Part shown: piece by piece, positions 15,470-63,920 of the stretch
How positions within the stretch are numbered: the stretch's first letter is position 1
How the letters are laid out: each line of letters opens with the position of its first letter
Source of the DNA: Octopus sinensis
Lineage: Eukaryota
Assembly (NCBI RefSeq): GCF_006345805.1
Contig: NC_043003.1
Location: 53,320,001-53,384,000 of the forward strand
Length of the DNA stretch: 64,000 nucleotides
Direction: 5' to 3'
The notes under the pieces: generated by a model
The model's database searches: none
Told to the model about the DNA's origin: nothing
What the model saw: the letters and a program-made list of their open reading frames with translations, nothing else
Made by a program: the position numbers and the translations under genes

Positions 15470-15680
15470 CGAAGACGAGTGTGTAAACAACAAACAGATG
15501 TATTAGTTTAATGATTGGGAAACGAGAAAGTCTTTTACGTTTCAAGCCTACGCTCTTCAACAGAAAGGAACACAGAAATAAACGGGGAGAGAAAATAGAA
15601 AAGGTTGAGTGGCTAGCGATCTATCATGGTGAATGCCGGACAGAGGGGTCACACAGGAGAGCTAGGAAAAATGGGGAGAT
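15470..15680 (-). mobile_element. Penelope-type terminal fragment with a minimal hammerhead motif (15531-15567)
   Basis: Minus strand reads CTTT-CTGTTGA-AGAGCGTAGGCTT-GAAACGTA-AAAG. A related inverted piece lies at 15191-15295 within TA-rich microsatellite. Confidence 0.65.
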
Positions 15681-20187: not shown

Positions 20188-20191
<4 letters not shown>

Positions 20192-20460
20192 CAAAATGGG
20201 ACAAGAATGCAAAACATCCAAACAGTTAGGTGATACAAAAATGGGACAACAAAACATTCAGATAGATGATACAAAGAAAACAAGGACGAGTCATTCGAAG
20301 TTTTCTTTCTTCAGTCAAGTATCAGACTACCTTCGCAATTTCAGTTGATTATACTTGAGATTGCTCCAATCTGTCCAGCCCCAAGGAAAAACTAAGCTAA
20401 GAGCATTAGATTCCTTGGAAGAAAGCAGTGAATGTATACAAAAACAAGGATGGAAAAAAT
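20188..20460. repeat. TA-microsatellite-associated dispersed repeat; second copy at 63188-63460
   Basis: About 270 bp closely similar between the two copies, both starting at the end of a (TA)n run. Confidence 0.8.
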
Positions 20461-22074: not shown

Positions 22075-22380
22075 TTTACATTATTTACATTTGACAGATA
22101 TTTGTCCTCATTTTGTTTGTTGTTAACACAATGTTTCGGCTGATATACCCTCCAGCCTTCTTCAGGTGTCTTGGGGAAATTTCGAACCTGGGTTCTCATT
22201 CCTAAGGTATTTTTTGATATTATTATAATTATTGTTATTCTTCAGGTCCCTGCTTGGAAACGAACTCTGAATCTTGGGATTAGTAGCCTGCACTCTTAAC
22301 CACTACACCATATGCCTGTGGGCATATGGCATAGTGGTTAATAATGTAAACAATGTACATAATTCCTCAAATCTTAAATA
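22075..22380 (-). mobile_element. tRNA-headed element carrying a minimal type I hammerhead (22125-22170), with a 5' inversion
   Basis: Minus strand: GGCATATGGTGTAGTGGTTAAGAGTGCAGGCTACTAATCCCAAGATTCAGAGTTCG (A/B boxes), then GACAC-CTGAAGA-AGGCTG GAGGGTATAT CAGCC-GAAAC-ATT-GTGTT. Confidence 0.75.
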
Positions 22381-26839: not shown

Positions 26840-27124
26840 AAGATGCATATATAGATATATCACTGATATCATAAGAATTTTTAAATTACAAAGGAACATA
26901 AAATAATGTTGCCTTCAACATTTTGTATCAAAAGGTTTTTACTCAATATTTACTTGCTATTATTTATAGCTTTATCTGCTTCATATATCATCATTCCCCC
27001 AAAAAATATATATACATATATATATAGTGTTAATCCAAACATGAAAGCACAAAAATAATACAACACGAGGATGTGGAACAAATATAGTATTATTGGACGC
27101 TCAGGAAAGAAGGAAAGAAGGAGG

Positions 27125-27159
27125 GTTTAACGTTTCGAGCAGAGCTCTTCGTCAGAAAC
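27125..27159 (-). ncRNA. Minimal type I hammerhead ribozyme motif within a Penelope-type terminal fragment (27027-27230)
   Basis: GUUU-CUGACGA-A-GAGC UCU GCUC-GAAAC-GUU-AAAC: canonical core, paired stems I and II, palindromic ACGU stem III. Confidence 0.75.
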
Positions 27160-27304
27160 ATAGGAGAAGGAAAAATCCAGAGAAGGGAAGACAGAGGAAA
27201 AAAATCGCCAACAGTACACACATGGTCACAAGTGTGTGTGTGTGTGTGTGTGTGTTTGCATGTATCTTCTTTTCGCTGTATATATATATATATATATACA
27301 TATG

Positions 27305-62948: not shown

Positions 62949-63145
62949 AAGGGAAAGTTTACGAAAATAAACAAAAGACGAAGGCAGGTAGAGTACAAAC
63001 AAATGTTTAATATAGCGCTCAGGAATAGAAAAAGTCTTTTACGTTTCGAGCCTACGCTCTTCGACAGAAAGATACACAGAAAAAAACAAGGAGAGAAACA
63101 AGGAGAGAAAAAAATGCGTGTAGGAGCTAACGATCTATCATGGCG

Positions 63146-63146: not shown

Positions 63147-63191
<45 letters not shown>

Positions 63192-63490
63192 CAAAGTGGG
63201 ACAAGAACGCAAAACATCCGGACAGCTAGGTGATACAAAAGGGCACAACAAAACATCCAGATAGATGATACAAAGAAAACAAGGACGGGTCATTCGAAGC
63301 CCTCTATCCTCAGTCAAGCACCAGATTATCCTCGCAATTTCGGCTGATTATTCTTGAGATTTCTTCAATCTGGCCAGCCCCAAGGAAAAACTAAGCTAAG
63401 AGCATTAGATCCCTTGGAAGAAAGCAGCGAATGTATGCAAAAACAAGGACGGAAAAAACGAATATAAATATAAATATATATATATATATA

Positions 63491-63920
63491 TCTGTTCGAA
63501 GGTTATATGGACACAGGTTCGTATGTAACATAGCTAGCTAGGGGCGATGGCCTCTTGGAGCTAATCAACGGCAGCATTCGTCTTATTTTTCTGGACTGCC
63601 ATGTTAGCTTGGCGATAATTATTAATATCCAGCATCACTTGGAAATATTAATATTTCTATTTTTGAAAACCAGTGGATGTATTCCACAGGATTTAGGTAA
63701 ATAATCCTTCGAACAGACGGTCAGCAACGACACCTTCCTGGTTCGGCTGCTCTACGTTGATAAGGGGCAAATACCCTGAAACTAGTCTGTAGATGCCAGA
63801 CCATCAAGGGGAAGCGGCTAACCTTCCCAATTCGAAGGTTATAATGGAGCTAATCAATGGCAGCATTCGTCCTATTTTTCTGGACTGCCATTTTAGCTTG
63901 GCGTAAACTATTAATATATA
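63491..63920 (+). mobile_element. Retrozyme-like partial tandem element within TA-rich flanks
   Basis: Direct repeat TTCGAAGGTTATA..TGGAGCTAATCAA.GGCAGCATTCGTC.TATTTTTCTGGACTGCCAT.TTAGCTTGGCG at about 63495/63556 and 63831/63845; HHR inside. Confidence 0.65.
63751..63793 (+). ncRNA. Minimal type I hammerhead ribozyme, U3:A8 core variant
   Basis: UCUACG-UUGAUAA-GGGG CAAAUA CCCU-GAAA-CUAG-UC-UGUAGA: 6 bp stem I, 4 bp stem II, palindromic ACUAGU stem III, GUC cleavage triplet. Confidence 0.75.

Follow-up and report, generated by a model that had tools for sequence, protein, structure and literature searches.

Near the downstream end of the window, the whole 64-kb stretch of Octopus sinensis DNA analyzed here, lies a degraded single-hammerhead copy of a dispersed, non-coding repeat family with a unit of ~360 bp. 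The features of this copy and its upstream flank are as follows.

63462-63491, no strand: (TA)n tract at the 5' junction, called by TRF; likely target sequence
63492-63917, plus strand: whole insertion, ~1.2 units of the ~360-bp family, one-armed, with its 3' end at site A
63491-63502, plus strand: 5' arm of a long-range helix, pairing with 63706-63717
63621-63628, plus strand: internal copy of site A, AT-rich, where most insertions end; putative reverse transcriptase (RT) start 1
63636-63640, plus strand: position of a 24-bp deletion private to the window copy, placed by alignment to L006 and L104
63642-63657, plus strand: 16-bp AT palindrome just before site B; putative RT start 2, the "tail" end
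63706-63717, plus strand: 3' arm of the long-range helix
63719-63823, plus strand: extended helix I rod around the hammerhead, in which 63719-63750 pairs with 63794-63823
63751-63756 and 63788-63793, plus strand: hammerhead helix I, 6 bp
63764-63767 and 63774-63777, plus strand: hammerhead helix II, 4 bp; loop 2 is 63768-63773 (6 nt)
63781-63786, plus strand: hammerhead helix III, palindromic; predicted cleavage after C63787
63825-63917, plus strand: incomplete second unit, which stops at site A (63917) and carries a 48-bp deletion at 63844/63845

A preliminary description had reported a tandem period of ~290-340 bp between TA-rich tracts. The partial direct repeat is present (73 bp at 92% identity, spacing 289), but the true unit is ~360 bp, and the spacings of 289 and ~340 arise because the 24- and 48-bp deletions shorten it. 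The first of these deletions also takes out a hairpin between sites A and B. A TA tract borders the insertion on its 5' side, whereas the 3' side has only a few AT pairs. The reported 12-bp complementarity between 63491-63502 and 63706-63717 is exact. Overall, the copy differs by 6.3% from the column-majority letters of the family, for which the median is 6.9%. Directly upstream sits a different repeat (63187-63460), which recurs at 20188-20459 (89% alike), lies between TA tracts in both places, also flanks another family copy (L032), and has no clear hammerhead.

The motif at 63751-63793 is a type I hammerhead with U3 at 63757, A8 at 63762, and C17 at 63787. It follows the core N3-U4G5A6-N7-N8-A9 / G12A13A14 / A15.1-U16.1 / H17, with positions 3 and 8 paired, and has three helices, the third of which forms only in a dimer. 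It was the sole match in a strict hammerhead scan of both strands of the window, and a similar strict scan found none in 10 of 10 shuffled windows; a relaxed scan gave five sites in the real window and none in five of five shuffles. The U3:A8 hammerhead named in the preliminary description is confirmed, but the terms "minimal" and "fully paired" do not suit it. It has a canonical 6-bp helix I, 4-bp helix II, and 6-nt loop 2, with an extended helix I. Its core and both stems still pair, with helices I and II ending in G·U wobbles, and helix III cannot close in the monomer: the folding model forbids a 2-bp form with a 2-nt loop and makes a 1-bp form 6.3 kcal/mol costlier than the open one. As a 6-nt palindrome, helix III is instead predicted to pair with a second copy at -6.2 kcal/mol. 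We take the 6-nt loop 2, together with a 3-nt bulge, to be reminiscent of the Schistosoma Sm-alpha ribozyme. The window copy also carries a private G2.1, seen in 1 of 59 copies. Rfam searches returned no hammerhead family for the window region at E<=1 or for a better-preserved family copy at E<=10, and folding of the isolated 76-nt hammerhead region does not surpass that of its shuffles (z -1.09). Dimer arrangements via a palindromic helix III have been described before (PMC4209133).

Four more minimal-hammerhead-like motifs occur in other repeat families of the window, all on the minus strand (63030-63073, 15526-15569, 27118-27161, and 22120-22171), two of them with U in place of A at core position 6. 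They likely mark where other Penelope-type repeats, lying within TA tracts, come to an end.

Searched at the DNA level, the 2.72-Gb genome yielded 2511 candidates, 40 of them scored; a single 34-mer of the family has at least 351 exact matches. Mapping of 150 loci, less 18 duplicates of the same place, left 132 elements. All of these consist only of a circularly permuted 359- to 362-bp unit, over lengths of 0.2-2.5 units. The unit has a GC content of 43%, contains short frames only with no RT or GIY-YIG frame, and gave no tblastx match to the open reading frames (ORFs) of Penelope-like elements (PLEs). Most copies are old, because nearest neighbors are 94% alike in the median. Core and stems are both intact in only 21 of 59 copies picked without selection on the core. 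In a younger subfamily (L262-L271 except L269), the units within one insertion are 92-99% alike. The family is also present in DNA runs under four organism labels, one of them with 4009 contigs. Contigs of three further runs, guessed to be RNA, cover the unit (73 in X2, 104 in X16, and 38 in X19), but the neighboring unrelated repeat is covered equally and the contigs show no ends or circles; they were set aside as evidence.

The exchange of C3:G8 for U3:A8, which had been read as an argument for retained catalysis at this locus, is common to the whole family. It is present in 91 of 95 exact core matches (the rest being three C3:A8 and one U3:G8) and, among 59 copies gathered irrespective of their core, in 56, with no C3:G8 in either set. 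On the strength of these counts U3:A8 is inherited family-wide, and it reflects past selection on source elements, not activity of the window copy. The swap itself is rare but already published and not new: Schistosoma Cercyon PLEs carry U3-A8 hammerheads (~1,300 matches in S. mansoni, PMC4209133), and natural U3-A8 variants are given in Perreault 2011, where they are said to be active in vitro (PMC3088659). A parallel origin under AT-biased mutation is plausible. CpG decay as the sole cause of U11.1 is ruled out by a subfamily in which A10.1-U11.1 restores the pair.

Across 43 aligned copies, 88.9% of cells are paired, with 83-93% pairing per helix in the extended helix I. Helix I shows two-sided changes (in 9 and 13 of the 43 copies), as do helix II (6 of 43) and the helix III palindrome, where a TA-to-AT exchange or its reverse in 5 of 43 copies leaves the palindrome intact. 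The total of 38 two-sided-change cells compares with 14.5 in shuffled and 6-15 in slid controls, although the covarying cells mark a few subfamilies rather than independent events. Two of five whole-structure measures are no better than shuffles (pairs with a two-sided change, 333/500; extra pair types, 487/500). Together, the covariation of helices I and II and the palindromic helix III fit a type I hammerhead that would act as a dimer. The alignment covers five pairs of the long-range helix; pairing there is 95%, and two-sided changes are absent. In the predicted fold of the circular monomer, the 12-bp long-range helix seals the half without the ribozyme, stacking against the extended helix I. 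Circular monomers running from cleavage site to cleavage site in four of four natural dimers have predicted fold z-scores of -5.5 to -8.3; the L004 monomer folds weakly (z -2.4).

A genome search aimed at dimers returned 2732 candidates, from the 40 best of which, all scored, 23 distinct loci were picked as dimers. Direct two-hammerhead loci do exist, and both motifs are intact, by the criteria applied here, in three of the 23 (L256, L258, and L266). Tandem copies are found as direct dimers and not as long arrays, the longest run among the 40 best of the 2732 candidates being ~2.6 units. The working definition of a retrozyme in 10.64898/2026.07.22.740005 covers the family and leaves out the window copy. 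Successive units of one insertion have rare letters in common in 50 of 240 cases (21%; 15% without L004), against 1.4% at random, and inverted arms share 10%, against 1.4-1.6%. This fits one template copied round more than once, though local duplication or gene conversion could also be the source. One direct dimer (L256:1340-2000, minus strand) has two hammerheads from different subfamilies, 78% alike over 125 nt. Such a dimer is not obtainable from one turn on one circle; therefore, template switching or nested insertion also happens.

Insertions of the family have variable 5' ends but only two 3' end points, sites A and B, ~54 nt apart and located 178 and ~232 nt past the cleavage site. Head-to-head inverted arms are present in 70 of the 132 elements. 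In 22 of these, one end lies elsewhere than A or B; the 48 with both ends classifiable comprise 44 A+B, 3 A+A, and 1 B+B (P 7e-10). An A+B pairing means one short end and one end ~54 nt longer, corresponding to the PLE "tail." Target duplications of 9-18 bp flank 21 of the 132 elements, against a mean of 0.43 in shuffled pairings. At least three TA repeats adjoin 35 of 96 site-A ends and 28 of 77 site-B ends (~36%, background 5.7%), and TA repeats adjoin 21% of 5' ends. Inverted arms, a one-ended tail, and AT or microsatellite targets are PLE features (PMC8557442, PMC3846280), and the PLE tail lies between two internal RT starts, with both target strands extended (PMC11167929). Judged from these scars, the family was likely mobilized by Penelope enzymes.

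Of the 95 arms anchored on the 3' region, 60 stop before the cleavage site and 33 cross it, while the starts of the other 2 lie no more than 8 nt away. Hence 33 of the 35 arms that reach the site continue through it, so the templates were circular or uncleaved. Arm starts are in excess 9-45 nt downstream of the cleavage site (23 arms; stop rate 1.3% per nt, against ~0.45% further 3'), which coincides with the point where an RT would enter the extended helix I. No insertion among the 132 elements carries a shared upstream host flank.

Candidate enzyme sources are resident in the same genome. ORFs of 780-781 amino acids encode RT and GIY-YIG domains (the RT just under the cut-off in one of two), with a Cys motif before the nuclease as in Neptune/Nematis, from which we infer their clade, and their elements have the same two-ended, (TA)n-targeted anatomy. 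A PDB search with one such ORF gave no match. Four young elements of this kind (L217 and L220-L222) carry U3:A8 hammerheads in the 3' pLTR, and three of them (L217, L220, and L221) have a separate upstream frame of 297-479 amino acids. The PLE pLTR hammerhead pattern has 1246 matches in the genome, with U3:A8 in 99 of the first 100 listed and in 13 of 13 motifs found at 30 GIY-YIG loci. In these hammerheads helix I is weak and rich in AT, helix II is longer, and the helix III palindrome is common to one subfamily of the retrozyme-like repeat. Pairing of a PLE hammerhead with one of the family via this palindrome was rejected by reasoning, since a dimer exchanges its helix I strands, and the helix I sequences of the PLE and of the family lack complementarity. 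As possible partners, the PLE whose GIY-YIG frame lies 1 kb from L043 is a member of a high-copy family, the 3' region of which is unrelated, and the PF01541 loci sampled have pLTR regions unrelated to the unit.

A sister family of ~294 bp (L213:170-420; L225-L249) gave 3352 candidates. Its hammerhead has C3:G8 in 8 of 11 motifs and a helix III formed by an 8-nt palindrome. Its insertions bear inverted arms and end 3' at two points ~24 nt apart, and a 44-nt segment is common to it and the ~360-bp family at 77% identity.

Taken together, we consider it fairly probable that the locus is a degraded insertion of a likely non-LTR retrozyme family, mobilized in trans by a Penelope-like RT/GIY-YIG protein, probably from circular RNA. 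By its testable features the family is of the non-LTR retrozyme or non-autonomous PLE kind, with cleavage and the circle as predictions. A two-hammerhead locus would be transcribed, and its hammerheads, paired with each other via their helix III palindromes, would excise a ~360-nt monomer. By analogy with PMC7229834, a host ligase may join this monomer into a highly paired circle. The PLE protein would then nick both strands of AT-rich DNA ~9-18 bp apart, and cDNA synthesis would start at internal positions of the RNA, with site A serving one strand and site B the other. Copying would cross the religated site and may exceed one turn, giving insertions of 0.2-2.6 units, often head-to-head. In its most specific form, put forward only tentatively, a Penelope RT/endonuclease copies an ORF-less RNA circle from two strictly paired internal starts, one per target strand (44/48), through the religated ribozyme site and for more than one turn, accompanied by the ~294-bp C3:G8 family of the same build. 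The earlier characterization as retrozyme-like and Penelope-mobilized is supported for the family, through its dimers, inverted arms, target duplications, and two 3' ends. The window copy is not supported as a source of circular RNA: having one hammerhead only, this copy cannot release a monomer in cis, and it carries two deletions and the private G2.1.

The same scars could be left by a non-autonomous PLE passenger spreading from linear, uncleaved read-through transcripts of short tandem loci, the hammerhead being weak or only trimming and no circle forming. We regard this as rather unlikely, though several lines of evidence suit it: the frequent passage of arms through the cleavage site and the rarity of starts near it (2/95), the mixed-subfamily dimer, the insertion of the PLE PAc from unprocessed RNA and the use in vitro of uncleaved RNA by a PLE that did not need its hammerhead (PMC11167929), and the failure of eight of nine Xenopus retrozyme dimers to cleave (10.64898/2026.07.22.740005). 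However, insertions made from a linear source transcript might have host sequence in common upstream, and none does; rare letters are common to successive units 11-15 times above random; and the strong predicted circular folding and subfamily-level hammerhead covariation also count against it. That the unit is the pLTR, as a solo or 5'-truncated end, of an autonomous Penelope family, an outcome the preliminary description had allowed for, seems quite improbable. All insertion signatures are PLE signatures, and the autonomous elements have the U3:A8 core in common with the family, as well as the helix III palindrome in the case of one subfamily. Nevertheless, a copy that exceeds one unit runs on into the unit again, and, simple or unrelated repeats aside, none of 132 passes in register into non-unit sequence that others share. 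Among 60 GIY-YIG loci and 14 longer PLE stretches, a small sample of the thousands of GIY-YIG loci, no pLTR resembles the unit, nested insertions of the ~360-bp or sister family aside, and the helix I and helix II of resident PLE hammerheads differ. Least probable is that the window copy itself is a functional, locus-specific circular RNA or ribozyme element with the swap marking selection at the site. Its core and stems do still pair, with wobbles, but it has a single hammerhead, no monomeric helix III, two deletions, an inherited swap, and a divergence typical of the family.

Returning to the preferred reading of a retrozyme family moved by Penelope enzymes, its value lies in a genomic insertion anatomy that ties a retrozyme to Penelope machinery, not in U3:A8. 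PLEs have been offered as "a strong candidate" for animal retrozyme mobilization (PMC7229834), and the vertebrate case was argued from co-occurrence and pLTR phylogeny (10.64898/2026.07.22.740005), in whose main text "tail" and "target site" do not occur. How animal retrozymes move is the question that the octopus insertions address: dispersed and partly dated, they keep PLE scars and point to two start sites and intact dimers. If the most specific form of this reading is borne out, which we think possible though short of probable, they would be a direct genomic footprint of retrozyme mobilization by a Penelope RT/endonuclease. In the literature searched on octopus or cephalopod hammerheads, Penelope, and retrozymes, no such family is described, and the only cephalopod count found is 235 hammerhead-1 matches in giant squid.

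Among known systems, Schistosoma Cercyon (PMC4209133) has the same U3-A8 covariation, but its motifs are minimal and lie in pLTRs of coding elements, whereas the octopus family has canonical helix sizes inside a non-coding unit. Chlamys MRC1 (PMC8557442) is likewise a non-coding PLE passenger with pLTR-like head-to-tail copies. Elements of its type, however, resemble their autonomous partner at the 3' end, a similarity absent from the octopus family among the PLE loci sampled, and belong to a clade without canonical hammerheads. With EN+ PLEs (PAc, PMC11167929; Adineta Pen, PMC3846280; Craig 2021, PMC8557442), which have TSDs of 8-10 bp and tails of 30-40 nt, the family shares partial tandems, an inverted 5'-truncated arm, a tail at one end only, AT or microsatellite targets, and a hammerhead upstream of two internal RT starts. 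It differs from them in lacking an ORF, in its ~54-nt tail, and in a unit that closes on itself at 360 bp. The closest counterparts are metazoan non-LTR retrozymes (Cervera and De la Pena 2020, PMC7229834), notably the 350- to 390-bp repeats of Mytilus. Non-LTR retrozymes are defined by a 150- to 450-bp non-coding unit with GC below 50% and no LTR, PBS, or PPT, and the octopus family resembles the metazoan ones in its non-coding unit within this size range, GC of 43%, type I hammerhead, direct dimers, and co-resident PLEs, in TSDs that exceed 4 bp, and in a circle predicted to pair extensively with itself. Known here from DNA alone, it is set apart from these retrozymes by its U3:A8 core, by a palindromic helix III like that of newt and axolotl, and by mostly dispersed partial copies with inverted arms in place of long arrays.
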